Assembly (NCBI GenBank): GCA_964360335.1
Contig: CAYHVH010000001.1
Coordinates: 23,426-87,425, forward strand
DNA from: an uncultured Candidatus Saccharibacteria bacterium
GTDB taxonomy: Bacteria > Patescibacteriota > Doudnabacteria > UBA920 > 2-01-FULL-46-14
DNA length: 64,000 nucleotides
Direction: 5' to 3'
Part shown: positions 497-28,211 of the stretch, in pieces
Layout of the letters: every line of letters starts with the position of its first letter
How positions within the stretch are numbered: position 1 is the first letter of the stretch
The notes under the pieces: generated by a model
Seen by the model: only the letters and a program-made list of their open reading frames with translations
Told to the model about the DNA's origin: nothing
Databases searched by the model: none
Program-made: the position numbers and the translations under genes

Positions 497-1876
497 CTAT
501 CTACTAACTCCTAACTTTTTAAGTTCTTCCCTTGCCACCTCCCGCTCGTCCCAAGGCAGCTCCACACCGTCCACATTCAAGCTTTGCTCGTGCCCCTTGC
601 CCGTGATGGCCACCAAATCACCGCTTTTGGCTTGGTTGAGGGCAAATCTGATAGCTTCGCGGCGATCAGGGATGATAAACAAATCAGTATTAAGGCGCTT
701 GTTTTTTACGCCGGACGCAATTTCTTGGCAGATTTTCTCGGCTGGTTCCGACCGATTGTCCTCTCGGGTTAAAACTATGGAGTTGGCAAACTCGTCGGCG
801 GCGCTTCCCATCAGCGGCCGCTTGGTCGAATCACGCTCGCCGGCGGCGCCAAACACCATAATAATGCTGCCCGAAACTTTCGGCCGTAAAAACGACAGCA
901 ACTCTCGCAAGCCGTTCGGCGTATGAGCAAAATCCACCAGGACCAAAAAAGGCGCTTTGGTTTCCAAAAACTCCATCCGGCCGGAAACGGTTTTTATCTG
1001 ACTAAGCCCCTTTTGAATACTGGCCACTGGAATTTTGTAAGCTGTAGCTACGGCAATGGCCGCCAAGGCATTTTTGACATTAAACTGGCCGGGAAGGCTC
1101 AACTCTATGGGAAAGCCGCCTGCTGGAGTATGAACTGAGAGCTTGCTTCCTTCCAAACTTTCATTGATGTCGCTGGCCCAAATCTGTGCCCGACTACTGA
1201 AGCCGTAAGTAAGCAACCTCTCCTTTAATTCCTCCCCATCGCTTGGGGAGGAAGATCGGAAGGAAAGACCATCACCAGGAGACCCGCCTTCGGCAAGCTT
1301 CGGACGGGCAGGTGGGGAGAGGGGGAGAGAGGTCGAAATTAATTTCAATAGTTGTTCATAACTTTTATCCTCTCGGTTCAAAACCGCGTATTTCACATTT
1401 TTAAACACTTTTGCTTTTGCCCGCAAATACTCCCCATAAGTTTTATGATAATCCAAATGCTCGTGGGTGACATTGGTAATGACCGCCGTTTCAAAGGTAA
1501 TTCCCCATGTCCGGTATTGGTCTAAGGCGTGGGAGGTGACTTCCAAAACCGCGTACTGGGAGCCGGCTTTGACCATTTGCTGAAGCAGCCGTTGCAACAA
1601 AAAGGAGCTGGGCGTGGTGGTATGCAGGCCGGTGTCAAGCGCTTGTCGCCCGATCTGCGCATTAATTGTCGAGAGAAAAGACACTGGCAGCCCTGCGGCT
1701 TTCAAGATGCTCGCTACGAGATTAACCGTCGTGGTTTTGCCGTCAGTACCAGTGACCCCGATGACATGCAGTTTGCGGGACGGGAAGCCATAGATAAAAT
1801 TCGCGAGGATGGCTCCCGCGAGGTGGTAGTAATTGATAAGTTTTTGACCTAAAAATTTACGTAAAAAGTTTTTCAT
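497..1876 (-). CDS. murE: UDP-N-acetylmuramoyl-tripeptide synthetase (Mur ligase, MurE-like) carrying an in-frame repeat insertion
   Basis: P-loop GVTGTDGKTTT, Mur ligase middle and C-terminal domains, and a REDNRSEP motif (DNPR-like). 459 aa including a roughly 41-aa insert. Confidence 0.75.
   Translation of the reverse strand: MKNFLRKFLGQKLINYYHLAGAILANFIYGFPSRKLHVIGVTGTDGKTTTVNLVASILKAAGLPVSFLSTINAQIGRQALDTGLHTTTPSSFLLQRLLQQMVKAGSQYAVLEVTSHALDQYRTWGITFETAVITNVTHEHLDYHKTYGEYLRAKAKVFKNVKYAVLNREDKSYEQLLKLISTSLPLSPPARPKLAEGGSPGDGLSFRSSSPSDGEELKERLLTYGFSSRAQIWASDINESLEGSKLSVHTPAGGFPIELSLPGQFNVKNALAAIAVATAYKIPVASIQKGLSQIKTVSGRMEFLETKAPFLVLVDFAHTPNGLRELLSFLRPKVSGSIIMVFGAAGERDSTKRPLMGSAADEFANSIVLTREDNRSEPAEKICQEIASGVKNKRLNTDLFIIPDRREAIRFALNQAKSGDLVAITGKGHEQSLNVDGVELPWDEREVAREELKKLGVSR
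1213..1335. repeat. Family-A palindromic element inside murE, in frame (~123 bp)
   Basis: GCAACCTCTCC...CTCCCCATCGCTTGGGGAGG...GGAGAGAGGTCGAA. Encodes the loop SPGDGLSFRSSSPSDGEELKERLL. About 85% identical to the copy at 5981. Confidence 0.7.
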
Positions 1877-2008
1877 GAAACTTCCCTCCTCCCCAGGCGC
1901 CCGGCCTTCGTAGCCACTTCGGCGGAGTAGGCTGGGGAGGAGAAGGAGGAGAGGTCGAACTGTGGATCCTTGTATGCAACCTCTCTCCAGCTCTCCCCTC
2001 GCCAGGGG
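1872..2008. repeat. Family-A element, intergenic (murE start / ruvA stop), two units
   Basis: CCTCCTCCCCAGGCG...GGCTGGGGAGGAG...GGAGAGGTCGAAC and GCAACCTCTCTCCAGCTCTCCCCTCGCCAGGGGAGAGAG. Confidence 0.65.
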
Positions 2009-2021
2009 AGAGAGTTAAGCG

Positions 2022-2606
2022 TTATTGTTTCGCCAAAAGCCGCAACGCTTCCCGAATCCTTTCCTCGGAAGAGCTGAGGTTTTTCGGAATCTCCGCCAAA
2101 GCCTGCCGCGCCTCGGACCGGCTATAACCGAGCGCCAGCAAAACGTCCAGCACGTCGGCATGGGCTTTGGAGAGTTCGCGCAAGTCCTCTTCTTTGCCGC
2201 CCAAGTCCTCGCTGATCTTGTCTTTGAGCTCGACGATGAGCCGCTCGGCGGTCTTGCGGCCAATCCCCGAAACTTTGGTAAAAACGGCGGGGTCCTCATT
2301 AACAATTCCGGATTTGATCATCGCCAAGTCCGCCAGCGACATCACGGACAAAGCGAGCTTCGGTCCCACGCCCGAGACCGTGAGCAAGAGTTCAAAAAAC
2401 TCGAGCTCCGCAGTGCTGGTAAAACCATAAAGTGCGAGCTGGTCTTCGCGAACATGAGTATGAATATACAGCGAAAGTTTTTTGCCAACCTCCGAGGTCA
2501 AAGAAAGCTGGGGAATGACAAAAACTTTGTAGCCGACATAGTCGGTCGCCAGGATAATGTAGTTTTTGCGGATGGCTTTAACGGTGCCGGAGAGATAGCC
2601 GATCAT
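2022..2606 (-). CDS. ruvA: Holliday junction DNA helicase RuvA
   Basis: 194 aa. OB-fold N-terminus MIGYLSGTV, HhH motifs (LLTVSGVGPKLA, FTKVSGIGRKTAERL) and a C-terminal RuvB-binding domain. Confidence 0.85.
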   Translation of the reverse strand: MIGYLSGTVKAIRKNYIILATDYVGYKVFVIPQLSLTSEVGKKLSLYIHTHVREDQLALYGFTSTAELEFFELLLTVSGVGPKLALSVMSLADLAMIKSGIVNEDPAVFTKVSGIGRKTAERLIVELKDKISEDLGGKEEDLRELSKAHADVLDVLLALGYSRSEARQALAEIPKNLSSSEERIREALRLLAKQ

Positions 2607-2686
2607 GCAGGTATTATGCCTATTGAATAAGTTTTTTTCAATCTGCTAAAATGAAAGTTGACCCTGTCTAATCTAATGCTAATGCT

Positions 2687-2785
2687 GCCCTCTCCAGGCG
2701 TGGAGAGGGACTAAGGGAGAGGTCGCATTTGCGACATAATAAACGACCTCTCTTCCGGCCTCTCCCCACGCCTGGGGAGAGGAGA
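2687..2785. repeat. Family-A element, intergenic (ruvA / uvrB), two half-units; its 3' end GGAGAGGAGAAG lies at the Shine-Dalgarno position for uvrB
   Basis: CTCTCCAGGCGTGGAGAGGGACTAAGGGAGAGGTCGC ... CGACCTCTCTTCCGGCCTCTCCCCACGCCTGGGGAGAGGAGAAG, followed by the uvrB ATG at 2794. Confidence 0.65.
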
Positions 2786-2793
2786 AGTAGCTT

Positions 2794-4785
2794 ATGCAGA
2801 AATTCAAACTCGTCTCAAAATTTCAACCCGCGGGCGACCAACCCCAAGCGATTGAAAAACTCGTGGCTGGCATCAAAAAAGGCCATAATTTTCAAACCCT
2901 CCTGGGCGTTACCGGCAGCGGCAAGACTTTTACCATGGCCAACGTGATCCAGGAAATCCAAAAACCCACGCTGGTGATTTCCCATAACAAAACTTTGACT
3001 GCCCAGCTCGCCTCGGAATTCCAGGAATTTTTCCCGCAAAACGCCGTGCACTATTTCGTTTCCTATTACGACTACTACCAACCCGAGGCATATATTCCCC
3101 GCACTGACACTTATATTGAAAAAGAAACCGATATTAATGAGGAAATTGATAGGTTGCGAAATGCGGCCACCATGTCTTTACTGACCCGCAAAGACGTCCT
3201 GATTGTCGCCTCGGTATCCTGCATTTACGGCCTCGGCAACCCCAGCAACTATTTGGATTTGAGTCTGCTCCTCGAAACCGGCAAACCCTACAAGCGGGAA
3301 AAGCTTTTGCGGCGAATAGTGGATCTGCAGTACCTGCGCAATGACTTGGAACTGCGCCGAGGGACTTTCCGCTTGCGCGGCGACGTCTTGGAAATTGTGC
3401 CGGCGCACGAGGACCGAGTATTAAGATTGGACTTTTTTGGCGACACTCTGGAAAAAATCACGGAGTTCGAGGCGCTCACCGGCGAGGACGAAACAAAGCA
3501 CGACTCCTACCGCCTGTTTCCGGCCAAGCACTTCATCACCCCACACGACAAACTGCTTTTGGCCGCCGACAACATCCGCCAGGAACTGCGGGAGAGACTG
3601 CAGTATTTCAAAAGCCGCAATCTCCTTCTCGAAGCCCAGCGCATCGAACAGCGCACGAATTTCGACCTTGAGATGATGCTCGAGACCGGCTACGTCAACG
3701 GGATTGAAAATTACTCGCGACAGTTAGATTTCCGCAAACCGGGGGAACCACCCTCCACCCTCCTTGACTATTTTCCCGACGACTTTCTGTTGTTTATTGA
3801 CGAATCGCACATGACCGTGCCGCAAATTCGCGGGATGTATGAGGGAGATCACTCCCGCAAAAAAAACCTGGTCGACTACGGCTTTCGGCTGCCTTCGGCT
3901 CTGGACAACCGGCCTCTGAAATTTTCCGAGTTTTTGAAGAAAGTTGGCCGGGCGGTTTTTGTCTCGGCGACTCCGGCAGAATACGAAATCAACAAGTCCC
4001 GCCAAATCGTAGAACAGCTCGTGCGCCCGACGGGGCTCTTGGACCCGGAGGTTGAGGTCCGTCCAACCCGCCACCAGATTGACGACCTGCTCGAGGAGAT
4101 TCGGAAGCGCACCGACCAGGCCCAGCGCGTATTGGTAACGACTCTGACCAAAAAAATGGCCGAGGAACTCTCTGAGTACCTCAAGGAAATTGGGGTGAAG
4201 ACTCACTATCTGCACTCGGACATTGACACCTTTGAGCGCCTCGAGATCCTGCGCGATCTGCGCCTCGGAGTTTACGATGTAGTGGTGGGGATTAACCTTT
4301 TGCGGGAGGGCTTGGATCTGCCGGAAGTCTCCCTGATAGCGATCTTGGACGCTGACAAAGAAGGATACTTGCGCTCAAAAACCGCACTACTGCAGGTGAT
4401 GGGCCGCGCCGCGCGACATTTAGACGGCCACATCATCATGTACGCTGACCGCGTGACTGGCTCGATGCGCTCCGCCATGGACGAAGTCCAAAGACGCCGC
4501 AAAATCCAGGAGGAGTATAACCGGCGTCACGGCATTACCCCGCAGAGTATTATCAAAGAGGTCCGGGAAAGCCGTTTGGCGGGGGCAAAAATCGCTCCTG
4601 CAGAACAAAAAACTGAAATCGATTACGCCAAGCTCGACAAAAAAGAACTAAGATATTACCTTGAGGAGCTCAAAGACCGCATGGATTTGGCCTCAAAAAA
4701 TCTGGAATTTGAAAAAGCCGCCGCGCTAAGAGACGAGATCATCGAAATAAATAAAAGCCTCAAACGGACGAGGCATAAAGTTTGA
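2794..4785 (+). CDS. uvrB: Excinuclease ABC subunit B
   Basis: 663 aa. Walker A GVTGSGKT, helicase motifs, a UvrB interaction domain and a C-terminal UVR domain ([14 protein letters not shown]). Confidence 0.95.
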
Positions 4786-4850
4786 GCGATCCGAATGATC
4801 CTAATTTTCATCCGAATGTTCCAAATCAGGTAGATTGGGATCGCTTTTTT
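4786..4850 (+). terminator. Hairpin plus T-run after uvrB
   Basis: GCGATCC...GGATCGC stem followed by TTTTTTAT. Sits between convergent uvrB and rpsT. Confidence 0.45.
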
Positions 4851-5109
4851 ATATTTTCGCTATCGCCTGACTAAGCCGAGATTTCAATCGCGCGGCTTTG
4901 TTTTTGTGAATGACGTGCTTTTTCCAAGCCTTGTCGATTTGTTTGTAGGCAAGACTTAAGGCTTTGACCGCTTCTTCTTTCTTTTTCGCGGCCACGGCCT
5001 GGCGAACAGACTTTACCGCATCCTTGTACTTCCCAATAGTCACTAGGTTAATCGTCCGTCTGCGACGGCTCTGTCTCATCGCCTTGGCTGCAGATCGCGT
5101 AATCGGCAT
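4849..5109 (-). CDS. rpsT: 30S ribosomal protein S20
   Basis: MPITRSAAKAMRQSRRRRTINL...; 86 aa from an internal ATG. The longer 110-aa ORF has an implausible hydrophobic leader. Confidence 0.85.
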   Translation of the reverse strand: MPITRSAAKAMRQSRRRRTINLVTIGKYKDAVKSVRQAVAAKKKEEAVKALSLAYKQIDKAWKKHVIHKNKAARLKSRLSQAIAKI

Positions 5110-5177
5110 GATAGTAAAAAAATAAAATTCAAACGTTAAATGACGTAGCGTTACATTAGCAAAAAAGGGAAACCCGG

Positions 5178-6410
5178 TCAACCCCGGAACAGCTTGTAAA
5201 GTTTAAACAGCGCGTAAAATGCCCGATTCAAAACCAGATCCCGGGCGCCGACACCGTAGACTTCCTTGCCCGTCACTCCGGCCGTGACATACCGGGTTTT
5301 GAACCGGGTAATCCCAGCCCAAGGATGGTCTGGTTCGTTCGGCGGGGCGACGCCCCACAAATCATACCATTTTTTGCCGCGTTGTCTGCTTAATTTGATT
5401 GCTTCCCAAAGGACAAGGCTTGGAGCATTGGCGGTTCGCTCTTTGGCAGAAGAAGCCGCGTACAAATAAGTTCCGGAATCACCGAAAAGCATAATGACGG
5501 CGGCAGCCAGGATTTCGCCTTGATATTCGCCGACCAGAAGCTCGGCGTGGGGTGCAAGCGACCTCTCCTTTGGTCCCTCCCCACGCCTGGGGAGGGAAGA
5601 AGAAAATAAAGCTTCTACTTGCGGAGTATTTGACCCCTCCTCAACCCTCCCCTCCTGCCCGTCCGGCAGGCGGGCGTCAGGAGAGGGAGTCATGAAGATA
5701 TCACGGAATTTCATGAATCGCTCGCGCGGCCAAGATACAATCCCGTCTCGTTTGGTGGTTTCCTCCAAAAGCTTCAAGAAAATTTCAAAAGCCCCTTTGT
5801 CTTGAGTCGCTACTCGCACTTTTACTCCCCTGCGCTGGGCGAGGCGGATATTGTAGCGGGATTTTTCGTGCATATTCTCCAAGAGTTCTTCCTCGCTTCT
5901 GCTTAAATCCACCAAAATCGTGCGAGCTGGCTCCATCTGCCGAAGCAAAATCTCGGGCTTTCTGAAACCCAGACCTGCAAGCGACCTCTCCTTCAACTCC
6001 TCCCCATCGCCTGGGGAGGAAGAGACAGAAGGATGCGGCGGATTAATTCTCGCCAAAACGGATTTTTCCTGCCGGCCGATTTCTTTGATTTTTTCTATCA
6101 AGGCCTGCATACCCCCTCTCCACTCTCCCCCTAAGTTAGGGGGAGAAAAAGAGGGGGTACCGCCCAATTCATGATTCGTAATTCTTGATTCGTCGAAAAT
6201 CGGTCCCTTCGGCACTTCCAAATAAGTTCTGCCAAACGGCAGCCTTTTTATTACGACTTGCGCTAAAAGCTGGTTCTGGATATCGAAGCGATAAACTTTG
6301 TGGCCGAGAGCGGCTTGAAACTGCCCCCATTGCCAGGACTGGAGGAAAGAGGAAGGAGAAGAGTTCCTGGCTACAAATTCATTCCAATTATCTTTAGAAA
6401 GTAGATTCAT
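5178..6410 (-). CDS. FemAB-family peptidoglycan aminoacyltransferase (lipid II amino-acid transferase-like) carrying two in-frame repeat insertions
   Basis: FemAB/FemX-like N-terminus (SSFLQSWQWGQF) and C-terminal GNAT-like fold. 410 aa including inserts. Confidence 0.65.
   Translation of the reverse strand: MNLLSKDNWNEFVARNSSPSSFLQSWQWGQFQAALGHKVYRFDIQNQLLAQVVIKRLPFGRTYLEVPKGPIFDESRITNHELGGTPSFSPPNLGGEWRGGMQALIEKIKEIGRQEKSVLARINPPHPSVSSSPGDGEELKERSLAGLGFRKPEILLRQMEPARTILVDLSRSEEELLENMHEKSRYNIRLAQRRGVKVRVATQDKGAFEIFLKLLEETTKRDGIVSWPRERFMKFRDIFMTPSPDARLPDGQEGRVEEGSNTPQVEALFSSSLPRRGEGPKERSLAPHAELLVGEYQGEILAAAVIMLFGDSGTYLYAASSAKERTANAPSLVLWEAIKLSRQRGKKWYDLWGVAPPNEPDHPWAGITRFKTRYVTAGVTGKEVYGVGARDLVLNRAFYALFKLYKLFRG
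5566..5690. repeat. Family-A element, in frame in the FemAB-like gene (unit 1)
   Basis: GCGACCTCTCCTTTGGTCCCTCCCCACGCCTGGGGAGGGAAGAAG... Encodes ...SLPRRGEGPKERSLAP... Confidence 0.65.
5981..6160. repeat. Family-A element(s), in frame in the FemAB-like gene (unit 2 plus a nested palindrome)
   Basis: GCGACCTCTCCTTCAACTCCTCCCCATCGCCTGGGGAGGAAGAGACAGAAGG (encodes SPGDGEELKERSLAG) and CCCCCTCTCCACTCTCCCCCTAAGTTAGGGGGAGAAAAAGAGGGGG (encodes GTPSFSPPNLGGEWRGG). Confidence 0.65.
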
Positions 6411-6501
6411 AATTATACGCTCGCCATTCTGGAGTCCCGCCCTCTGGCGGGACGATAGAATCCTAGAGATCCTTCCCCCTCGACTACGCTCGGGGTCAGG
6501 A

Positions 6502-9276
6502 TTACACGGCTTGCCGTGTCATCTCTTCCCAATTATCGCCGAACTTGGCTTCCACGACGAGGGGAACTTTGAGTTTATAAATATTCTGCATGATTTTGGT
6601 AATTTTTCCGGCATAGTCATCAACTTTCTTTTCGGCTATTTCAAACACCAGCTCATCGTGAACCTGTAAGAGCAACCGGCAATCCTCGCGAGACGTCAAA
6701 TTTTCCTCCGCCAGTTTGTTCATCGCCAGTTTGATAATATCCGCCGAAAGCGATTGAAACGGCATGTTGATGGCCGCTCGTTCAGCAGCGGCGCGAACTG
6801 GCCACTGCGAAGAATTAATCTCGGGGAGATACCGGAGTCGCCCGAGTTCGTTTTTGACGTAGCCCGAGCGGCGCGTTTCCCCAACTATTTCCTCAAGGTA
6901 GTGAGTCAAGCTGTGATAGGTTTCGAAATATTTATCGATAAAATCTTGGGCTTCGCCTTGGGACACTCCTTTGATCCGGCTCTTGAGACCATAAGCGGAA
7001 AGGCCGTAGAGTACCCCGAAATTTATGGTCTTGGCATCTCGGCGCATTTCCGGGGTAATTTCGACCTCTCCTCCAGCTCCTCCCCTCGCCAGGGGAGAAG
7101 GGAGGGATTGAAAAATCTCGCGAGCTGTTGCTTCGTGAATGTCGCCGCCTTCGTGAAAAACTTTAATCATTTTCTCGTCGCCCGACAAATGGGCGGCCAG
7201 ACGAAGCTCAATCTGGGAGTAGTCCACGGACAGCAATTTATACCCTGTTTCGGCAACGAACGCCCCGCGGATTTTTCGACCAAACTCGGTGCGGATCGGA
7301 ATGTTCTGGAGATTCGGTTCGCTGGAGGACAATCGCCCGGTGGCAGTAACTGTCTGGTTAAAACTTGTGTGTAGCCGCCGCGTTTGAGGACTAACCAAAT
7401 CCGGCAAGGCATCTAGATAAGTATTTTTAAGTTTCGTTAATTCCCGCCATTCCGATATCAAATCAATAATCGGATGCAATCCTTTGAGCTTCTCGAGTTC
7501 CGTGGCCGCCGTGGACAGGCCGGTTTTGCCTTTTTTGAGCTCCTCGGTGGGAATCCCCAATTTCTCAAATAATATCTGTTTTAGCTGGATCGGGCTGCCG
7601 ATGTTAAATCTCTCGCCCGAAAGCCGGTAAATCTTCTGTTCGAGTTTCGAAATCTCCGCCGTGGCCTCGGCCGACAACTCCTTCAAGCACGACGGATTGA
7701 CCTTTACTCCCCAGCGTTCCATTTCCGCCAAAACTCTCACCAGCGGCATTTCGATCTCATAAAAAATTTTCTCTAAATCTTTACTTCTTAGCTCTTTTTC
7801 CAGTTTTTGTTTTAGCCGGAAAGTGTAGTCCACATCCTCGCAACAGTAAGCCGCGACCTCTCGGACCGGCACTTCGGCCATGCTAATCTCTTTTTTGCCT
7901 TCGCCAATCAAACTTTTAATCGGGGTTTTCCGGAAGCCAAACTCGGTAAAACTTAGGGTGTCCAAATCGAAATTCCGCGCCCCGGGGTTTAAAAGATAGG
8001 CGGCAATCATCGTGTCAAAAAACTCTCCTCCCAAAATCACTCCGGCCTTTTGCAAAATCAAATAATCATACTTGAGATTATGGCCGATTTTCAGAACTTC
8101 CGGATTCTGCAAAATTTCCGTGAGGGCCGGGGAAATCATCGCCGCCGGCAGGTAAAAGGCCCGGTTTTCTTGCCACGCCAACCCGAGGCCGAGAAGCTCA
8201 GCCTGCATCGGGTGAACCGAGGTCGTTTCGGTATCAATAGCGATTTGTTTCTGCCTCTCAAGCTCAGTAATGATGCTTTGGAATTTTTTCGGCGTATCAA
8301 GGAGCTGATAGTCAAATTCCTCCTCGCCCCCTCTGCTCCCTCGAGCTCTACTTAGGGCAGGCTCATGAGGGGAGTGGGGGATGTCAGTCTTTGGCAGTTT
8401 ATCCAAAAGTGAACGGAACTCCAGCTCCTGAAAAAGTTTAAAAACTTTCTGTTCATCATAAGCCAGAAGCCGGGCCTGGGTTAAATCCAGTTTCACCGGG
8501 AGGTTTTTGACGATTGTTGCCAATTTTTTGGAAATTTCCGCATCCGCCCGGTGTTCCAGAAGCAGTCGAGCGACGCGCGGCTTGAGCGCCGAGTGGTCTT
8601 TGCCGACTAAATATTTATAAATTCCTTCCAAGGTCTTAAATTTTTGCAGGAGCTCGGTCGCGGTTTTTTCCCCGATGCCTTTGACCCCGGGAATGTTATC
8701 CGAAGGATCACCGCGCAGGGCTTTAAAATCTAGAAGTTCCTCGGGTCTGAGGCCATATCGCTCCCGAACCGCCCCCACGTCATAAAGTTTGGTTTCGGTC
8801 AAGCCTTGCTTAGGAGCATAGACTTTCACCCGTTCGTCTACTAATTGCAGGGTGTCCAAATCCCCGGTTAAAATCACAGTATCCAAATCTTCCTGCTTCC
8901 GGGCTTTTTCGGCCAGAGTGCCAATCAAATCATCAGCTTCATAACTTTCCAGTTCATAGACTGGAAGATTAAAAGCTCTGACCAATTCTTTGACGCGGGG
9001 AATTTGCTCATAAAGTTCGGCGGGGGCTTTAATTCTTGTTGCCTTATAAGGCTCATAAATTTTTTCCCGGAAAGTTGGCGCCGGAAAGTCAAACGTCACT
9101 GCCACGTACTCGGGCCGCAGTTCTTTGAGGGCTTTCAAAAACAACAGGGCAAAACCGTAAACGCCGTTTACTGGCTCGCCCTTTTTGGTGGACAGGTGAG
9201 GAATCGCGTGAAAGCCGCGGTGGACCAAAGCATTGCCGTCTACCAATAATAAAACTGGTTTATCTTTGCTGGACAT
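6502..9276 (-). CDS. polA: DNA polymerase I
   Basis: 924 aa. 5'-3' exonuclease, 3'-5' exonuclease-like and polymerase domains (motif RRDAKTINFGVLYG, and the motif-C region SQIELRLAAHLSGDE). Two in-frame repeat insertions. Confidence 0.95.
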   Translation of the reverse strand: MSSKDKPVLLLVDGNALVHRGFHAIPHLSTKKGEPVNGVYGFALLFLKALKELRPEYVAVTFDFPAPTFREKIYEPYKATRIKAPAELYEQIPRVKELVRAFNLPVYELESYEADDLIGTLAEKARKQEDLDTVILTGDLDTLQLVDERVKVYAPKQGLTETKLYDVGAVRERYGLRPEELLDFKALRGDPSDNIPGVKGIGEKTATELLQKFKTLEGIYKYLVGKDHSALKPRVARLLLEHRADAEISKKLATIVKNLPVKLDLTQARLLAYDEQKVFKLFQELEFRSLLDKLPKTDIPHSPHEPALSRARGSRGGEEEFDYQLLDTPKKFQSIITELERQKQIAIDTETTSVHPMQAELLGLGLAWQENRAFYLPAAMISPALTEILQNPEVLKIGHNLKYDYLILQKAGVILGGEFFDTMIAAYLLNPGARNFDLDTLSFTEFGFRKTPIKSLIGEGKKEISMAEVPVREVAAYCCEDVDYTFRLKQKLEKELRSKDLEKIFYEIEMPLVRVLAEMERWGVKVNPSCLKELSAEATAEISKLEQKIYRLSGERFNIGSPIQLKQILFEKLGIPTEELKKGKTGLSTAATELEKLKGLHPIIDLISEWRELTKLKNTYLDALPDLVSPQTRRLHTSFNQTVTATGRLSSSEPNLQNIPIRTEFGRKIRGAFVAETGYKLLSVDYSQIELRLAAHLSGDEKMIKVFHEGGDIHEATAREIFQSLPSPLARGGAGGEVEITPEMRRDAKTINFGVLYGLSAYGLKSRIKGVSQGEAQDFIDKYFETYHSLTHYLEEIVGETRRSGYVKNELGRLRYLPEINSSQWPVRAAAERAAINMPFQSLSADIIKLAMNKLAEENLTSREDCRLLLQVHDELVFEIAEKKVDDYAGKITKIMQNIYKLKVPLVVEAKFGDNWEEMTRQAV
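7061..7106. repeat. Family-A element in frame in the polA fingers region
   Basis: TCGACCTCTCCTCCAGCTCCTCCCCTCGCCAGGGGAGAAGGGAGGG. Encodes SLPSPLARGGAGGEVE immediately upstream of the RRxxKxxNFG O-helix. Confidence 0.65.
8318..8385. repeat. Degenerate family-A-like palindromic insert in the polA interdomain linker
   Basis: CCCCCTCTGCTCCCTCGAGC...GAGGGGAGTGGGGG. Encodes HSPHEPALSRARGSRGGEEE. Confidence 0.4.
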
Positions 9277-15726: not shown

Positions 15727-15802
15727 CAACATAAGTCCATATTGTCTACGTTTTTATGTAATTACATAATGTTGTAGACAAGCGAATTTAGCAAAAAGTA
15801 AA

Positions 15803-15838
15803 AAAGGAGACAGACTACAACGCGGTCTGTCAGCGCTT
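15803..15838 (-). repeat. 36-bp hairpin repeat copy 1 (AAAAAGGAGACAGACTACAACGCGGTCTGTCAGCGCT); terminator of the minus-strand RibA-like gene
   Basis: Identical copy at 17683-17717. On the minus strand it reads GACAGACCGCGTTGTAGTCTGTC then TCCTTTTT. Confidence 0.7.
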
Positions 15839-15846
15839 CTTTGGGG

Positions 15847-16731
15847 CTACCCCGGCCAATCAGAGTAATCCCAGCCATCTGCAAGGGGAAGGTGTATGTT
15901 GTGTCCGTGGAGAGATTTTGTCGAAAGCTCAAGTCTGTTAAAGTCATTAACTTCTGCCTGAAGGGGCACCCATTGTACTGCAAATCCTTCTTGCTTGAGG
16001 CGGTTGATTTTCCGAGGGTTATTCGTGGCGGCAATCAGACCGATTTTTGTGATATCGAAGTGTTTGAGGATTACCATCTGATCTTCCAGCTCGTCCCACT
16101 CCGGACGGCTGGAAATTCTGACAAACGGCTCCCACCAGCGGTCTATCTTGGCCGGGTCGGGGTCAAGGCCTTTTCGAATGGCGACTATTTCCGCCATTGT
16201 ATCAATCAGCGCGTGGTTCCTCGGCCCCAGTCCTTTTCCAACATGATGCAGAGCGAGAATAATCATCCCGGGGTGACCTTCTCCCCAGCTGTTGGAAACC
16301 CGCTGCTTTGCCATCTCGAACTGATCACCGCAATCACACGTTACCGCCCCTTCAACAATGCCATTAAGGCACATCGATTGGAGACGAACGACTACTGCCT
16401 CGGTTTGGAGGCTGCTGTCATTCCCCAGCCAAAGCACCCGATATTCCCGCTCTGGATGATAACAATAACCAGCGATTTCCGGTGGCTGGCTGTCCCTTTT
16501 CGCAACGTCTGACCCTCCCCAAAAACGGAAATGGGCCTTATTGAACAAGACCGCCCTTTCCTCACGACCCCCCAAGCGGCCGAGCGACCACCATTTCCGA
16601 TGACTTTCTGATCGTCGCAACCGCAACCACTCGTGATAGGGCCCAATCATCTCGAAGCCTTGCTCTTGGTTGGTCACAATACCCTCTAGCTTACCCCAAA
16701 AATCCTGACTGCCCCCCTTATTGTCACTCAT
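15847..16731 (-). CDS. GTP cyclohydrolase II (RibA)-family protein with an N-terminal extension
   Basis: 294 aa. VRLQSMCLNG...CDCGDQFE matches the RibA zinc site (HSECLTG...CDCGFQ). GMIILALHHVGKGLG matches GILLYHRQEGRNIG. AATNNPRKINRLKQEGF matches LTNNPKKVEILTEAG. Confidence 0.6.
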   Translation of the reverse strand: MSDNKGGSQDFWGKLEGIVTNQEQGFEMIGPYHEWLRLRRSESHRKWWSLGRLGGREERAVLFNKAHFRFWGGSDVAKRDSQPPEIAGYCYHPEREYRVLWLGNDSSLQTEAVVVRLQSMCLNGIVEGAVTCDCGDQFEMAKQRVSNSWGEGHPGMIILALHHVGKGLGPRNHALIDTMAEIVAIRKGLDPDPAKIDRWWEPFVRISSRPEWDELEDQMVILKHFDITKIGLIAATNNPRKINRLKQEGFAVQWVPLQAEVNDFNRLELSTKSLHGHNIHLPLADGWDYSDWPG

Positions 16732-16829: not shown

Positions 16830-16885
16830 TGACTTATTTTAGCCAAAAATCTATACTATAATTGTTGTCGGATATTACCGACAAT
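16830..16885 (+). promoter_or_regulatory. Sigma-70-like promoter (TTGACT-N17-TATACT) followed by a 20-bp palindromic operator TTGTCGGATATTACCGACAA overlapping the TrmB start; related half-site at ~16772-16790
   Basis: Read directly from the sequence. The second site CTAGTCAATATTAACCGACT shares the ATATTA(A)CCGAC core. Confidence 0.5.
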
Positions 16886-17653
16886 ATAACGGAAAGCTCC
16901 TACATGCCCCTTGAAATAGATTTGAAACAATTTGGTTTTGACGAGAAAAAAGCCAGGATTTACCTGGCAGTCTTAGAGCTGGGTGAGGCAAAAGCAGCCG
17001 AGGTTGCCAAAAAGTCCGGGATAGAAAGACCAACGTGTTATGACATTTTAAATAAACTGGTCCAAGATGGACTTATTAGCTTCTTCGATAAAAGAGGAGT
17101 CAAGCATTTCGTGGCCGAGGACCCAGAAAAAATCCAAGTCCGGCTCGCAGAAAAAGAAAGGGCTCTTAATCAATTATTGCCGGAATTAAAATCGGTTTAT
17201 AATAGCCTAAAAACAAAACCCAAAATCAAATTCTTTGAAGGCCTTGCGGGAATTAAAACAATCCTGGAAGACACGCTTACTCCCCACGATAAACAGCTCT
17301 TGGGCATTTTATCAATGCGGGATCTCTATGAAATTCCGGGGAAAGAATTTATGGACAACTATGTTAAGAGGAGAATTGAAGCAAAAGTTAAACTCCGGGT
17401 TATTCGGTCAAGGATTAAAGAGGTTGGGGAGACTTGGCCTACTAATCCAAAAGAATACCGAGAATTGCGCTACGCTCCGGAAAAATTATCCTTCCCCGTA
17501 ACAATCTACATTTATGATAATAAGGTTGGAATAATCGGCACCAAAAAAGAAAACTTCGGCATGCTCATTGAGTCAGAGGAATTTTTTGAAACCTTCAAGA
17601 ATCTATTCGAAGTTTTGTGGCTCGTATCAAAAGCTGGGCCGACAAAAGATTAA
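16862..17653 (+). CDS. TrmB-family transcriptional regulator (winged-HTH)
   Basis: N-terminal TrmB HTH (GFDEKKARIYLAVLELGEAKAAEVAKKSGIERPTCYDILNKL). The real start may be the internal Met (MPLEID). AT-rich gene. Confidence 0.7.
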   Translation: MLSDITDNITESSYMPLEIDLKQFGFDEKKARIYLAVLELGEAKAAEVAKKSGIERPTCYDILNKLVQDGLISFFDKRGVKHFVAEDPEKIQVRLAEKERALNQLLPELKSVYNSLKTKPKIKFFEGLAGIKTILEDTLTPHDKQLLGILSMRDLYEIPGKEFMDNYVKRRIEAKVKLRVIRSRIKEVGETWPTNPKEYRELRYAPEKLSFPVTIYIYDNKVGIIGTKKENFGMLIESEEFFETFKNLFEVLWLVSKAGPTKD

Positions 17654-17682
17654 ATTTTCTGGACTAGGAAAAGGGGATAAAA

Positions 17683-17717
17683 AGGAGACAGACTACAACG
17701 CGGTCTGTCAGCGCTAA
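17683..17717 (-). repeat. 36-bp hairpin repeat copy 2; terminator of the minus-strand OMP-like gene
   Basis: Identical to 15803-15838. On the minus strand the hairpin is followed by TCCTTTTTAT. Confidence 0.7.
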
Positions 17718-23997: not shown

Positions 23998-24235
23998 TGA
24001 CCTTCAGAATTTTTGCCTCATGGAGCCGGAGTTCATTGGCCATCACGGCGCTTCGGGTTTTGACGGTGAGGGTTTTTTTCTGGAGACTGACTGGCCTGAT
24101 CGCCTCGGATTCGGGGATCAAATTTTTTATTTCCGCCCGATAGAGATCGAAAATTCGCACGATTTCCAGCTGCCGCGAAAGCTCGTCTTTGCGGCTGAAT
24201 TTGCCCTGGAGCGTTTCCCCTAATTTTTTAAACAT
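23945..24235 (-). CDS. DUF721 (DciA-like) protein downstream of recF
   Basis: 96 aa. Conserved position after recF in the dnaA-dnaN-recF cluster. Confidence 0.55.
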   Translation of the reverse strand: MFKKLGETLQGKFSRKDELSRQLEIVRIFDLYRAEIKNLIPESEAIRPVSLQKKTLTVKTRSAVMANELRLHEAKILKVINQTVGHQAVKRVIYRF

Positions 24236-25358
24236 TTATCGCGGTCGAAGTTACTGCTCCCTGATTGACGGCATAGACCTGCGCCCTTTTCGGCAAAAAA
24301 TCCTGAACCTCTTCGAGATGAATAGTAGTGAGAAATACCTGTTTCAGGATGGACAAAAAGCCGGTTAATTTTTTCTGGTGCTCAAAATCAAACTCGGAAA
24401 AGATATCATCCAAAAGCATGATTGGGGATTCTCCGGTTTGCTCCTCCAGATATTGCTTTTCCGTAAACTTTAGCGCCAGGGTCAAGCTCCGCATCTGCCC
24501 ACGAGAAACAAACCCAACCACGTCCTTGCCCTGAAGCAGGGTCGCAAAGTCATCGCGGTGCGGCCCGAGAAGAGTGGTACCGCGCTGCCGTTCGGTTTGG
24601 CGCAAACTGCGAAGCTTTTCGAGAAATTCCTGCTTGTTCACCGCTCCAGACATACGATAAACAAACTTCACTTCCGTAAGTTCGGGGGATAGGGAAGCGA
24701 TAATGGCGGGAAGGGAAGCGTTCAAATATTTTAAGAGGTTGTCTCGGTGCTGACAGATGAGGCTGCCAAACTCCGCCAATTTTTCATCCCAAATGTCCAT
24801 CTCTGGAAGCCCGAGTTTTTCATCATCGATACGCTCCCGGCCTTGACCGGAAATCTTTTGCCAGAGCTCATTGCGCTGCCGTAAACTTTTTTCATACTGC
24901 TGTTGAGCATATCGATATTGCCGAGTACCGAGCGACAGGGTTTCGCTTAGAAACCGCCGCCGGTTGCTAGGGGACCGCGTTAAGATATTCAAGTCCTGGG
25001 GCACGAAACTGACAATGGGCAGGATCCCGGCATACTTGCTGCGCGGTGTTTCTTGGCCATTAACTTTGAGTTTGTAAATTGGCCGTGTCTCTCTATATTC
25101 TGCGTAAACCTCCTGAACGACCGGTTCCCGGTTTTCCAACTCTATTTTTGCGCGCAAAAAATTTCGCCCTTCCAAAAACAACTGCCCAAATTTGCTTTCG
25201 GGAAACTTTCGCAGCGTGCTCCCGAAATATATACCCTCCAAAAAATTGGTTTTTCCGGCACCATTCGGCCCCGTTAAAACTACAAAGCCCTGATCGAGAT
25301 GCAAATCAAGGCTTTGAAAGTTTCGAAAGTTTTGGAATAGGAGCCGGGCAATATGCAT
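24228..25358 (-). CDS. recF: DNA replication and repair protein RecF
   Basis: 376 aa. Walker A GPNGAGKTN and the SMC-like signature. Confidence 0.9.
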   Translation of the reverse strand: MHIARLLFQNFRNFQSLDLHLDQGFVVLTGPNGAGKTNFLEGIYFGSTLRKFPESKFGQLFLEGRNFLRAKIELENREPVVQEVYAEYRETRPIYKLKVNGQETPRSKYAGILPIVSFVPQDLNILTRSPSNRRRFLSETLSLGTRQYRYAQQQYEKSLRQRNELWQKISGQGRERIDDEKLGLPEMDIWDEKLAEFGSLICQHRDNLLKYLNASLPAIIASLSPELTEVKFVYRMSGAVNKQEFLEKLRSLRQTERQRGTTLLGPHRDDFATLLQGKDVVGFVSRGQMRSLTLALKFTEKQYLEEQTGESPIMLLDDIFSEFDFEHQKKLTGFLSILKQVFLTTIHLEEVQDFLPKRAQVYAVNQGAVTSTAINV

Positions 25359-25360
25359 TT

Positions 25361-26455
25361 TCAGATCTTGATCGGCATGACGATATAGAGGTAGTTGTCC
25401 CTCCCTGCCGGTACCAAGGCCGCAGGAGACGAAGAGTTGATGACTCTTAAAGAAACCTGCTCGTCTGGTAAATTATTCAGGCACTCCAGGAGATAGCGGT
25501 AGTTGAAAACTGCCGCATTTTTTTCGCCCGTTAATTCCCCGAACAGGCGAATTTCGCTCCCTCCCACCTGGACCGCTTGGGACTTGATTACCACCTGCTT
25601 CCCTGGCGGATTGAGTTCCAGCTCAATGTTGTTGGTGTCCCCGGCGAAAAGGCTTGCCGCCTTCAAAGCCTGTACAAATTCGCCCCGCTTGAGCTCTGCC
25701 TGGGTTGTGAAGTTTTGAGGGACTATCTGTTTGTAATCTGGATACTGGCCCTCGATCAGACGCGAAATAAGTTCAACCTCCTCGGTTCTCAAACAAATTT
25801 GCCCTTCCTTGAGAAAGACCTCGATTGTTCCCTCCCCCATGCTTCTACTTGCTTCATTGACGGCGCGGGTTGGGACAATCACCTGGCGGTTGCTACCCAC
25901 CTCTTCCCCAAGTGGGATTTTTACTTCTGCCAAGCGGTAGCGGTCGGTGGTAGCCAGGGTTAGCCCTTTCCCCTCAAAACTAAACAACACCCCAGAAATT
26001 TCCGGCTGGGTTTCGGAAAAGGCCGCGGCAAATCCTACCTCCCCAACTCCTTCCCGAAGCGCTTTCCCTGAGAGTTTGGTATAAACCCCGCCTTCCCCCC
26101 CGGGAATGAGGGGAAAGTCTTCTACCCCCAAGCCGTTGATATGAGTTTTGGCGTTTTCCCCTTCCAGCAACAGGTCGGTTTTTTCTGTGGAGATAGTGAG
26201 CTTTTCCGTTAGCAAATTAGCCACGAGTTCGTTGAGTAATTTCGCCGGTACCGTAAGCTCCCCGTCTTCTACTACTTTCCCCCCCACCCAAGTATTAACC
26301 GCCATCTCTAGATTTGTGGTGGTGAGTTTGAGGCGACCCTTCTCTGTGCGGAGCAAAATATTGTTGAGAATGGGTAGGGCGTTCCCTCCCCCAATAATCC
26401 GCGAGCAGATCTGTAAGCCAGCATTGAGGTTTTTTTTTGTACACTGCATTTTCAT
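25361..26455 (-). CDS. dnaN: DNA polymerase III beta sliding clamp
   Basis: 364 aa, three-domain clamp architecture, immediately downstream of dnaA. Confidence 0.9.
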   Translation of the reverse strand: MKMQCTKKNLNAGLQICSRIIGGGNALPILNNILLRTEKGRLKLTTTNLEMAVNTWVGGKVVEDGELTVPAKLLNELVANLLTEKLTISTEKTDLLLEGENAKTHINGLGVEDFPLIPGGEGGVYTKLSGKALREGVGEVGFAAAFSETQPEISGVLFSFEGKGLTLATTDRYRLAEVKIPLGEEVGSNRQVIVPTRAVNEASRSMGEGTIEVFLKEGQICLRTEEVELISRLIEGQYPDYKQIVPQNFTTQAELKRGEFVQALKAASLFAGDTNNIELELNPPGKQVVIKSQAVQVGGSEIRLFGELTGEKNAAVFNYRYLLECLNNLPDEQVSLRVINSSSPAALVPAGRDNYLYIVMPIKI

Positions 26456-26499: not shown

Positions 26500-26660
26500 A
26501 TAGTAATTGCTGGGGGAATGTGGGAAAGGGGGAGATTCTGCTGCTAGCGCCCGTCCCCAGTTCGCGGCCGGTGGGGAAGGTGGTGACAGGGGTGGGGAGA
26601 GATTGGGGGGGAAGGAAACAAGGACAGGATCTTTCCCCCAATCCCCCCACAGTTAATCCA
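26500..26660. repeat. G-run-rich palindromic spacer between dnaA and dnaN (GGGGA/TCCCC hairpins), possibly related to family A
   Basis: GATTGGGGGGGAAGG...CTTTCCCCCAATCCCCCC (roughly 13-bp stem), plus GTCCCCAG...GGTGGGGAAGG and GGGGTGGGGAGAG. Confidence 0.4.
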
Positions 26661-28017
26661 TATAGATTCGGTTGGTAATCAGGCTTATTTCATGTTTGAG
26701 GGCTTCCTTTTCCTTTCCTACCCTTTGGACTTTGTCAATGGCGTGGATGACTGTGGTGTGGTCGCGCCCGCCGAAAATTTCCCCTATCATCGGTAGACTG
26801 GTCTCGAGTTCTTTCCTGATAATATACATCGCCACCTGGCGGGGGAGGACGTACTCTTTTTTGCGGGATTGTTTGACGAGGTCGTCAATTGTCACATTGT
26901 AGAAGTCCGCCACGACCTCCATAATTTTTTTTGCCGAGGCCATCCGTTTTTTTGGAGGGAAAACAATGTTGGCAAGGATATTTTTCACCTTGTCCAAGGT
27001 TGGGGAGGTGTTGTTGAGCTGACAAAAAACCATCAGGCGGTTAAGCGAGCCCTCGAGTTCGCGAATGTTAGTCTCCACGGTTTGGGCAATATACTCAAGC
27101 ACCCCTGGCCCAACATCGTAACCTCGCTCTTTGGCTTTTGAGCGCAAGATTGCAAGCCGAGTTTCGAAGTCCGGCGGCTGGACGTCTGCAATCATCCCCC
27201 ATTCAAAGCGGGAAACCAGCCGCTCTTCAATGGCAGGGATTTCCTTTGGTAAACGGTCCGAAGATAGCACTATTTGTTTGTTGATTTGATGTAAGGCGTT
27301 GAAGGTGTGAAAAAATTCTTCCTGGGTTTGTTCCTTGCCTGCCAAAAATTGTACGTCATCGATGAGGAGGACGTCTACCCCCCGATAGAGATTTTTAAAA
27401 GTTTCCCCTTTGTTGTAGCGAACCGCTTGAATGAATTCATTGGTAAATTTTTCCGTGGTGACATACAAAACTTGCTTGGCCACCCCACTATTTAAAAAAT
27501 CATTCCCGATCGCCTGCAGGAGGTGGGTTTTTCCCAGACCGACCCCGCCGTAAATGAACAACGGGTTGTAAGCCCTTCCCGGATTTTTGGTTACTCCCTG
27601 AGCGGCGGCAACGGCCAATTCGTTGTTGCCACCAACAATAAAGTTCAAGAAAGTGTATTTTGGGTTAAGCCCCGTGCTGAGGGAGGAAGACTTGACGGTT
27701 GGGGTATGTTCGGGCGAAGCGGGAAGTGACACAATCCTGGGAGGAGGTTCGGCCGCCCGGCGGTTATAGCCACCGGTAATTTGGTATTCGATTTGTTTGA
27801 TTTCGGGGTTAACAGCGCGGATAGCCCGCAGAATTGCCTGATGGAACTTGTTCATCAGCCATTCTTTGGTAAAGGCGTTGGGCACACCAATAACCACTTT
27901 TCCCGAACTTTGTTCCAAAATTGCGGTGTTTTTAAACCAGGTGGTGAAGCTCGCCTTGGACAGGGAGAGCTCAAGGTTTCCCAGAACCGCCTGCCAGATT
28001 TGTTTAGTGGAGTTCAC
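26653..28017 (-). CDS. dnaA: Chromosomal replication initiator DnaA
   Basis: AAA+ motifs (GGVGLGKTHLL, LIDDVQF) and a C-terminal DnaA-box-binding domain. The real N-terminus (IWQAVLGNLELSLSKASFTTWF) implies a GTG start near 28017. The longer ORF extension to 28233 is rejected. Confidence 0.85.
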   Translation of the reverse strand: MNSTKQIWQAVLGNLELSLSKASFTTWFKNTAILEQSSGKVVIGVPNAFTKEWLMNKFHQAILRAIRAVNPEIKQIEYQITGGYNRRAAEPPPRIVSLPASPEHTPTVKSSSLSTGLNPKYTFLNFIVGGNNELAVAAAQGVTKNPGRAYNPLFIYGGVGLGKTHLLQAIGNDFLNSGVAKQVLYVTTEKFTNEFIQAVRYNKGETFKNLYRGVDVLLIDDVQFLAGKEQTQEEFFHTFNALHQINKQIVLSSDRLPKEIPAIEERLVSRFEWGMIADVQPPDFETRLAILRSKAKERGYDVGPGVLEYIAQTVETNIRELEGSLNRLMVFCQLNNTSPTLDKVKNILANIVFPPKKRMASAKKIMEVVADFYNVTIDDLVKQSRKKEYVLPRQVAMYIIRKELETSLPMIGEIFGGRDHTTVIHAIDKVQRVGKEKEALKHEISLITNRIYMD

Positions 28018-28211
28018 TTTTGTACCCCATTCTTTTTGCTTATGTTTTTCCCTTGCTGCTATTCTAACAGAATGGTTATCAACATGTAAAATAATAGGAA
28101 ATCCCCAGGAATAAGCCAAAAAAAGGATTGTATGTGGATAGGGTGTGTAAAACCAGTGCATCAAATTTTTGAATTGGCCAAATTCGATTTGGGAAGGTAT
28201 AATTAGAAAAG
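28018..28211. promoter_or_regulatory. AT-rich dnaA/rpmH divergent intergenic region with DnaA-box-like 9-mers (candidate oriC / dnaA promoter)
   Basis: TTATCAACA and TGTGGATAG are each one mismatch from the TTATCCACA box. The region is AT-rich. Confidence 0.4.

Follow-up and report, generated by a model that had tools for sequence, protein, structure and literature searches.

The window analysed here, a 64,000-nucleotide stretch of the genome of an uncultured Candidatus Saccharibacteria bacterium, carries an intact gene for DNA polymerase I, polA. Directly ahead of helix O of the polymerase fingers the gene product has an extra segment, encoded by an in-frame copy of a small GC-rich hairpin repeat that is dispersed through the window. 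The gene, the insert and a second segment that had been suspected of a similar origin are laid out as follows (ORF, open reading frame; pLDDT, predicted local distance difference test).

6502 to 9276, minus strand: polA, DNA polymerase I, 924 aa, intact (ORF list, Pfam, PDB alignments, 31-sequence alignment).
7009 to 7053, minus strand: codons of fingers helix O, residues 742-756, directly downstream of the insert (AlphaFold2 secondary structure, Taq alignment).
7061 to 7103, plus strand in the model orientation, antisense to polA: copy of the repeat in polA (nhmmer E 6.8e-10; repeat families D2, D3 and D8; inverted pairs I7, I9 and I19; empty ortholog sites L004, L005 and L128).
7062 to 7071, plus strand: unpaired conserved tail of the element, CGACCTCTCC (alignment of copies; same tail in at least 120 cross-phylum loci).
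7077 to 7100, plus strand: hairpin of the element, CTCCTCCCCT / cgcc / AGGGGAGAAG, a 10-bp stem with one mismatch (hairpin extraction).
7114 to 7140, minus strand: codons of fingers helix N, residues 713-721 including H714 (= Taq H639), directly upstream of the insert (AlphaFold2, Taq alignment).
8317 to 8376, minus strand: residues 301-320, a hypervariable linker between the 5'-3' and 3'-5' exonuclease domains, predicted disordered (HSPHEPALSRARGSRGGEEE; pLDDT < 50 for residues 300-318; negative similarity and fold tests; homolog variability).

The polA product contains the Pfam domains PF02739, PF01367, PF01612 and PF00476 (E 1e-28 to 3e-142). They follow the family A order, with the 5'-3' exonuclease (N part and SAM-fold) first, then the 3'-5' exonuclease and then DNA_pol_A. 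The protein aligns end to end with the Taq, Klenow and Bst polymerases, and the full-length PDB matches are Taq and 6vde. The polymerase motifs D685, R745, K749, F753, Y757 and H873-D874-E875 all occur in the protein and do not vary among 31 homologs, and the 3'-5' exonuclease motifs D348/E350, D404 and Y477/D481 occupy invariant columns of the same 31-sequence alignment. R745, K749, F753 and Y757 correspond to Taq R659, K663, F667 and Y671. D685, D874 and E875 align to the Taq catalytic residues D610, D785 and E786, and the set of residues expected of family A is present. Judged by its sequence, PolA appears to remain an intact polymerase. The nearest named homologs are proteins of Patescibacteria (Candidate Phyla Radiation, CPR), and an identical protein is encoded on a contig of the Hainich groundwater metagenome (ERZ1292627).

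The insert encodes the peptide SLPSPLARGGAGGEVE, residues 724-739 (S724-E739, nt 7060-7107). In the HMMER alignment to Taq it falls between P650/R651 and E652 ('mfg-vpr---------e-avdplmrraak'), with a net gain of 11 residues; over Klenow and Bst the gain across the same segment is about 12. A sequence-only reading of this DNA had placed an element copy at 7061-7106, just before helix O. The codons of the peptide agree with that placement to within 1 nt, and the PDB alignments to Klenow and Taq show the 11-12 extra residues lying between helices N and O. The insert ends five residues before R745. From the Klentaq structures we take H714 and R745 to be triphosphate ligands. The DNA of the polA copy folds at -11.9 kcal/mol (z = -1.9) and, when used as a blastn-short query, matches other copies of the element at E 2e-6 to 2e-4.

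The AlphaFold2 model of PolA has a mean pLDDT of 86. Residues 725-736 are modelled as coil with pLDDT < 50, one of just five such segments in the protein, and the helices on either side (713-721 and 742-756) have pLDDT values of about 86-91. The model thus predicts a surface or loop site compatible with the fold. The tryptic peptides predicted for the insert-bearing protein are EIFQSLPSPLAR and GGAGGEVEITPEMR.

A repeat search of the window yielded overlapping families that centre on CGACCTCTCC...CCTCCCC-loop-GGGGAGG. The element is about 43 nt long and consists of the CGACCTCTCC tail, a 7-nt spacer and a GC-rich stem of 9-10 bp with a loop of 4-6 nt. An nhmmer profile built from nine copies and run on the 64-kb window gave nine strong copies, including the one in polA (E 4e-14 to 7e-10), and six weaker matches besides. 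The stems vary among copies yet pair fully (TTCCTCCCCA/TGGGGAGGAA, CCTCTCCCCA/TGGGGAGAGG, CCCTCTCCA/TGGAGAGGG, CTCTCCCCT/AGGGGAGAG), which indicates compensatory changes. Copies and variants together number about 17 in the window, and 12-13 of them lie inside ORFs with the frame kept open, against a coding fraction of 0.88. The intragenic hosts are genes for a Mur ligase (2), FemAB (4), PolA (1), RuvC (1), transketolase (2), transaldolase (2) and a phosphoglucose isomerase (PGI)-like protein (1). Two reading frames are used by the strong intragenic copies, giving ..LPRRGEGxKERS.. or ..PPQARGGxxGEV..; the third frame holds the TAA of the element. The copies other than that in polA are given below, where REP stands for repetitive extragenic palindrome and REPIN for a REP doublet forming a hairpin.

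1214 to 1256, plus strand: copy in frame in the Mur ligase gene (497-1876, minus strand) (nhmmer E 5e-12, census, Pfam).
1301 to 1337: longer-stem variant with the same tail (fold analysis).
1933 to 2013: pair of weaker intergenic copies in inverted arrangement, a minus-strand copy at 1933-1957 and a plus-strand copy at 1977-2013, whose tails face each other, REPIN-like (nhmmer E 0.13 and 9e-5; I19, D3).
2684 to 2786: pair of strong intergenic copies in inverted arrangement, a minus-strand copy at 2684-2725 and a plus-strand copy at 2744-2786, separated by 18 nt, REPIN-like (nhmmer E 1e-11 and 9e-11; I5).
5559 to 5601, plus strand: copy in frame in FemAB (SSLPRRGEGPKERSLA), absent from orthologs (nhmmer E 4e-14, FemAB alignment).
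5629 to 5690, plus strand: variant that has the same tail but a longer hairpin and lies in frame within FemAB (inverted pair I11; fold z = -2.5; FemAB alignment).
5982 to 6024, plus strand: copy in frame in FemAB (SSSPGDGEELKERSLA), absent from orthologs (nhmmer E 7e-11, FemAB alignment).
6108 to 6162, no strand assigned: nested double hairpin representing another kind of repeat; FemAB contains it in frame (GGTPSFSPPNLGGEWRGGM) and the orthologs lack it (DNA fold -20 kcal/mol, z = -6.4; FemAB alignment).
36173 to 36215, plus strand: copy in frame in ruvC (35765-36283, minus strand), right of the replication origin and antisense to the gene (nhmmer E 2e-13; Pfam RuvC).
47973 to 48013, minus strand: copy in frame in the transketolase gene (46213-48270, plus strand) (nhmmer E 4e-11; Pfam).
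48093 to 48130: weaker second transketolase copy (nhmmer E 3e-4).
51611 to 51633: partial transaldolase copy (nhmmer E 5e-4).
51644 to 51684, minus strand: copy in frame in the transaldolase gene (50931-51827, plus strand) (nhmmer E 9e-13; Pfam).
52078 to 52104, plus strand: weak copy in frame in the PGI-like gene (51858-52916, plus strand) (nhmmer E 0.005; family D8; Pfam).

The FemAB gene (5178-6410) contains four separate hairpin-repeat blocks and is the densest host in the window. Its product is 410 aa long compared with 332-345 aa in three syntenic orthologs, and the excess of about 65-78 aa is exactly the element blocks. The nested hairpin at 6108-6162 reads ACCCCCTCT..TCTCCCCCTAAnTTAGGGGGAGA..AGAGGGGGT, and no further copy of it was seen in the window. 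A scan with Rfam (gathering thresholds for the whole window, E<=1 for 1100-7200) found three tRNAs and chance microRNA matches only; the element thus does not belong to the curated RNA families.

In the model orientation, each of the seven strong intragenic copies of the window runs antisense to its gene, and the mRNA therefore carries the hairpin and then GGGAGAGGTCG. When the weaker copies are counted as well, the orientations stand at 9 to 3. Stop codons do not explain this bias, since all six frames are open in the GC-rich variant and the TAA-containing variant loses just one frame per orientation. The direction of replication was considered with the help of four genes:

24228 to 25358, minus strand: recF.
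25361 to 26455, minus strand: dnaN.
26653 to 28233, minus strand: dnaA.
28931 to 29623, plus strand: yidC.

These genes bracket the minimum of the cumulative GC skew, and the bracket and the minimum together point to a replication origin, oriC, near 28.3-28.9 kb, probably in the gap of that extent. The ruvC copy lies to the right of it in a minus-strand gene and is still antisense; in this single informative case the orientation follows the gene and not the replication fork. Replication direction as the cause of the bias is contradicted by this copy, one case being too few to settle the matter.

Among the 31 aligned homologs the long loop between helices N and O is found only in the window protein, P0004 and P0005. 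The inserts of the latter two are copies of the element at the DNA level (locus L001, 12238-12281, E 8e-6, and locus L003, 5232-5272, E 5e-9, respectively). Other homologs at 69-72% identity (P0002, P0008, P0010 and others) have an empty site, F-x6-VTPEM, and clean empty sites are seen in the DNA of L004, L005 and L128. Such empty sites in close orthologs bear out the earlier suggestion that the segment is a repeated palindromic element and not an ordinary loop. The spacing from the histidine of the DIH motif to the RR of helix O, measured in 118 homologs, is 19-20 residues in 107, 10-11 in 5 and 30-32 in 4; the longest class is confined to the 4 element carriers, and the whole range is 10 to 32 residues. 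P0033, at 54% identity, has a different hairpin variant in the same loop (L127, about 3720-3757), which reads CCTCTCCC-TCT-GGGAGAGG followed by GGGTGAGGGT and is an independent event. Element-like peptides occur at four hot spots in homologs of PolA, the others following window residues 225, 299-304 and 380-383. As to the surroundings of the gene, FemAB comes directly after polA in the window, L004 and L005, and a Fic/RhuM-domain gene lies downstream of polA in three relatives (L001 12838-13857, L003 5850-6848, L128 4466-5485).

Comparison of the carriers showed how the insert evolves. Between the window and L003, the codons of identical residues differ at 0 of 10 positions in the insert against 329 of 644 gene-wide (p = 8e-4), synonymous change being saturated in the remainder of the gene, and 6 of the 16 insert residues differ. 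The other two carrier comparisons (1 of 6 and 3 of 10 codons differing) point in the same direction, the three comparisons not being independent, and 6-10 of 16 insert residues differ between carriers. Residues that change without synonymous change indicate that the insert is conserved as nucleotides and not as peptide. This pattern fits a DNA element kept by hairpin constraint, by conversion between copies or by recent arrival, and it speaks against a selected protein loop.

The segment between the two exonuclease domains gave a different result. The sequence-only reading had seen a degenerate copy at 8318-8385, and this did not stand up. The segment has no match to the element profile in nhmmer at E<=10 and none to any element copy in blastn-short. 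Its DNA folds at chance (z = -0.56; 54 of 200 shuffles fold equally well), and its Smith-Waterman local alignment to the family consensus on either strand is equalled by 135-148 of 500 shuffles. In P0010 the same linker does hold a genuine copy, sense-oriented and significant (L128 2403-2451, E 7e-5), and the score of the alignment to that copy is reached by 102 of 500 shuffles. The linker is 27 residues long in the window and 17-42 in 31 homologs. By these sequence tests, the stretch 8317-8376 would be an ordinary hypervariable linker and is not demonstrably an element copy. That it is instead a very old copy, decayed beyond recognition, is unlikely. Its composition is element-like, a C/T-rich half followed by a G/A-rich half encoding a Pro/Ser...Gly/Glu peptide, the relative P0010 has its recognisable copy at this very place, and P0024, P0026 and P0027 have PSP..GEG-like strings in the linker. 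Set against this are the four similarity and structure tests, all at chance, and a length inside the normal range.

The element is also found far outside the window. The exact pattern GACCTCTCC-N7-CCTCCCC-N4-6-GGGGAGG, searched in contigs representing one genome per species, occurs in at least 120 DNA stretches, where about 0.05 would be expected by an estimate that assumes uniform base composition. Among the matches listed, to which the following counts also refer, are Chloroflexota, Armatimonadota, Nostocales and Oscillatoriales (isolates included), Bipolaricaulota, Fraserbacteria, Saccharibacteria, Doudnabacteria and a few others; more than one copy is present in several genomes, and tandem arrays in some. 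Placement within ORFs of at least 200 aa was judged in loci with less than 56% GC, for which ORF prediction can be trusted. There, 24 of 43 copies are intragenic, and 20 of these 24 share the orientation seen in the window (p = 0.0015). In-frame copies, mostly in that same orientation, also occur in genes of cyanobacteria, of a Bacteroidetes metagenome-assembled genome (MAG) and of Saccharibacteria. The cross-phylum intragenic copies encode PPLxGEGLGERS or PSPxRGGxxGEV. In a Pfam scan of ten host ORFs nine proved to be bona fide genes, and the hosts include a methyltransferase, a pseudouridine synthase, HsdR, an Eco57I-like methylase, a STAND NTPase, UbiD and Fpg.

In cyanobacteria (L014, L035, L039, L085, L108, L102 and others) a second hairpin module, CTCCCCCTTCCCT-loop-AGGGAAGGGGG, is frequently joined to the element, and the two together give in-frame inserts of greater length, for example LTPLPPFP..REGG..PPLAGEGLGERS. 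Tandem arrays of such units, with a period of 42-77 nt, are present in some contigs of Oscillatoria and Anaerolineae. A far-reaching reading, which we regard as quite improbable, is that of a cross-phylum hairpin family, previously undescribed in the literature searched, about 35-45 nt long and near-identical throughout (GACCTCTCC-N7-CCTCCCC-loop-GGGGAGG), which colonises the coding sequences of Patescibacteria, Chloroflexota, Cyanobacteria, Armatimonadota, Bipolaricaulota and others in a preferred gene orientation. If true, it would imply either a common, transcription-coupled mechanism that works on single-stranded DNA or a function at the mRNA level, and the element would continually reshape loops on the surface of essential enzymes, among them the fingers of Pol I.

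The segment ahead of helix O is thus very probably a REP-like selfish element, similar also to the Rickettsia palindromic elements (RPEs), that is tolerated in a surface loop. In this explanation, a non-coding selfish repeat would have spread across the genome of its Patescibacteria host, protein-coding genes included. Intragenic copies would survive only where the reading frame is kept, where the frame that reads the TAA of the element is avoided, and where the copy falls in a surface loop that tolerates a flexible peptide rich in Pro, Ser, Gly and Glu. In PolA the tolerant place would be the loop that connects helices N and O of the fingers, and the 11 additional residues would most likely form a disordered, near-neutral loop. 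The most likely mode of spread, by analogy with REPs and with REPINs and their transposase RAYT (REP-associated tyrosine transposase), would be mobilisation of the hairpin in trans, as single-stranded DNA, by an unlinked enzyme.

Several points weigh against this explanation. Among the 32 ORFs of the window (64 kb of genome) scanned with Pfam there is no transposase or other mobilising gene. Clustering of the ORFs within 2 kb of at least 129 cross-phylum copies revealed no recurrent gene beside the element; no cluster spans more than 5 loci and none is transposase-like. Neither a target-site duplication nor defined ends could be read from the filled and empty sites, and the net gain in polA, 33 nt, is shorter than the conserved 43 nt, which leaves the insertion event without a reconstruction. 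Translation of the insert is assumed from its open frame, and its neutrality is presumed for a loop that adjoins the triphosphate-binding end of helix O. Finally, a neighbour-joining tree recovers an exclusive clade of the three carriers in 0 of 200 bootstraps, and P0004 groups with the insert-free P0010 with 93% support. Since the carriers are not monophyletic, repeated gains or precise losses are needed, and a single ancestral insertion into polA is left without support.

This topology is what one would expect if the three polA inserts and that of P0033 were independent landings and the codons of the N-O loop a hot spot of integration, a reading that is possible and deserves tentative weight. 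The cleanly empty site of P0010 fits it, as does the different hairpin variant that the distant P0033 carries at the same place, and the lack of synonymous divergence in the insert between the window and L003 looks as if the copies were younger than the genes. Against it, the spacer TCCA(G/T)CT is common to the three polA copies and missing from most of the window's remaining copies, a point in favour of common descent of the polA copies, with precise losses or recombination afterwards; the tree's deep branches are short, and the empty sites have no common DNA motif. A lineage-specific adaptive loop, tuning dNTP access, closing of the fingers, fidelity or a protein contact, is highly improbable. 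It would account for the place of the insert between the two triphosphate ligands H714 and R745 and for its retention in three genomes despite a PolA identity of only about 70-75% among them, and REPs in repair genes have been speculated to modify activity (Di Nocera et al. 2013, PMC3733652). However, the insert is predicted to be disordered, its peptide is poorly conserved while its nucleotides are kept, the carriers' closest relatives lack it, unrelated metabolic enzymes harbour the same element, and homologs tolerate loops of 10 to 32 residues at this position. The disorder, this range of lengths and the independent hit in P0033 also weaken the effect on fidelity or processivity that had been proposed from the sequence; a kinetic effect on the polymerase is possible, given the neighbouring end of helix O, but unsupported.

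It is also very unlikely that the repeat is a selected nucleic-acid signal, whether an mRNA hairpin whose G-rich tail, resembling a Shine-Dalgarno sequence, paces translation, a protein-binding site or an uptake sequence. A signal would explain a hairpin maintained by compensatory changes, the strong bias in gene orientation (7 of 7 here and 20 of 24 among the cross-phylum matches listed), a ruvC copy that tracks the direction of the gene and not of the replichore, and the near-identical sequence in several phyla. But the element matches no Rfam family, its positions within proteins are not conserved between orthologs, its hosts are functionally unrelated, its presence varies among close relatives, and three weaker copies in the window have the opposite orientation.

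For polA itself, a selfish element in the N-O loop has little consequence: another essential enzyme tolerates a loop encoded by selfish DNA beside a catalytic helix. The loop is a natural insertion-tolerant site in the fingers of family A polymerases, which may be of use in engineering. CPR genomes are small and thought to be streamlined; despite this presumed streamlining the window has about one repeat per 4-5 kb, mostly intragenic. The most interesting lead is the distribution of the element across phyla together with its orientation bias within coding sequences. Should the pattern prove genome-wide, it would be relevant to the mobility of hairpin repeats that lack a linked transposase, to the inflation of protein length and the spurious 'low-complexity' regions in MAG annotations, and to alignment-based phylogenomics of CPR, the inserts being homoplastic.

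Elsewhere in the window, a perfect 37-nt direct repeat with a small hairpin (AAAAAGGAGACAGACTACAACGCGGTCTGTCAGCGCT) is present at 15801-15837 and 17679-17715. The pair brackets a GTP cyclohydrolase II-like gene (15847-16731) and a TrmB-family regulator (16862-17653) and could represent terminators or the ends of a small cassette. The ORFs at 2025-2630 (201 aa) and 37782-38768 (328 aa) have no Pfam match at E<=1e-4/1e-5, and the former lies between the two intergenic doublets of the element.

Palindromic repeats in frame in housekeeping genes are the hallmark of the Rickettsia RPEs. Ogata and colleagues reportedly found, in 2000 and 2002, that RPEs lie in frame in many housekeeping genes and are translated as extra surface loops, that function is retained and that their presence varies between related species. 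The window element resembles them in being in frame in genes and absent from orthologs (polA, FemAB), with 12-13 open-frame intragenic copies, and in the predicted position of the polA insert, a low-confidence coil between well-modelled helices. RPEs are confined to Rickettsia, and most are about 100-150 nt long. The window element, with about 43 nt, a GC-rich composition, a host among the Patescibacteria and near-identical relatives in other phyla, is set apart by these descriptions. The small dispersed repeats (SDRs) of Nostoc, said to have been described by Elhai et al. in 2008, are reportedly shorter than 50 nt and apparently mobile, with lengths of 21-27 nt, some copies inside genes and no linked transposase. 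Their very small size, apparent mobility, partly intragenic placement and lack of a linked transposase are shared by the window element, which differs in being about 43 nt long; this comparison is by description. MITEs (miniature inverted-repeat transposable elements) have the terminal inverted repeats of a parent insertion sequence, a target-site duplication and a length of about 100-400 bp. A MITE can be rejected here, as the element has about 43 nt, one internal hairpin and no duplication at filled versus empty sites. With the Nostoc work left outside the comparison, the literature searched holds no description of the element family in CPR or by its sequence.

The REPIN/RAYT system (Bertels & Rainey 2011, PMC3116915; Nunvar 2010, PMC2817692) offers a further comparison. 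Like it, the window element is a high-copy hairpin with compensatory stems, and its two intergenic inverted doublets resemble REPINs. Most of the copies, however, are single and inside genes. Neither the 32 ORFs scanned in the 64-kb window nor the surroundings of at least 120 related loci revealed a RAYT (a Y1 HUH transposase).

The closest precedent for the polA insert comes from the REPs. The REPs tagged with GTAG or CGTC have the tetranucleotide beside the stem and are mostly extragenic (PMC3733652). The window element shares with REPs the short imperfect palindrome and the many copies (9 strong and 6 weak in 64 kb), but it lacks GTAG or CGTC next to the stem, its conserved unpaired part CGACCTCTCC lies about 7 nt from the stem, and it is mostly intragenic. 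REPs inside ORFs have been reported in several phyla, in genes that include DNA polymerase I, uvrABCD, recBCD and dnaE, and were argued to fall in linkers or loops, with neutrality and possible mutator effects both discussed (Di Nocera et al. 2013, PMC3733652). The sequence-only reading had called an insertion beside a catalytic helix unexpected. Because roughly a dozen in-frame copies lie in housekeeping genes of the same window and REPs within polA are already published, the polA insert is neither unique nor especially surprising.

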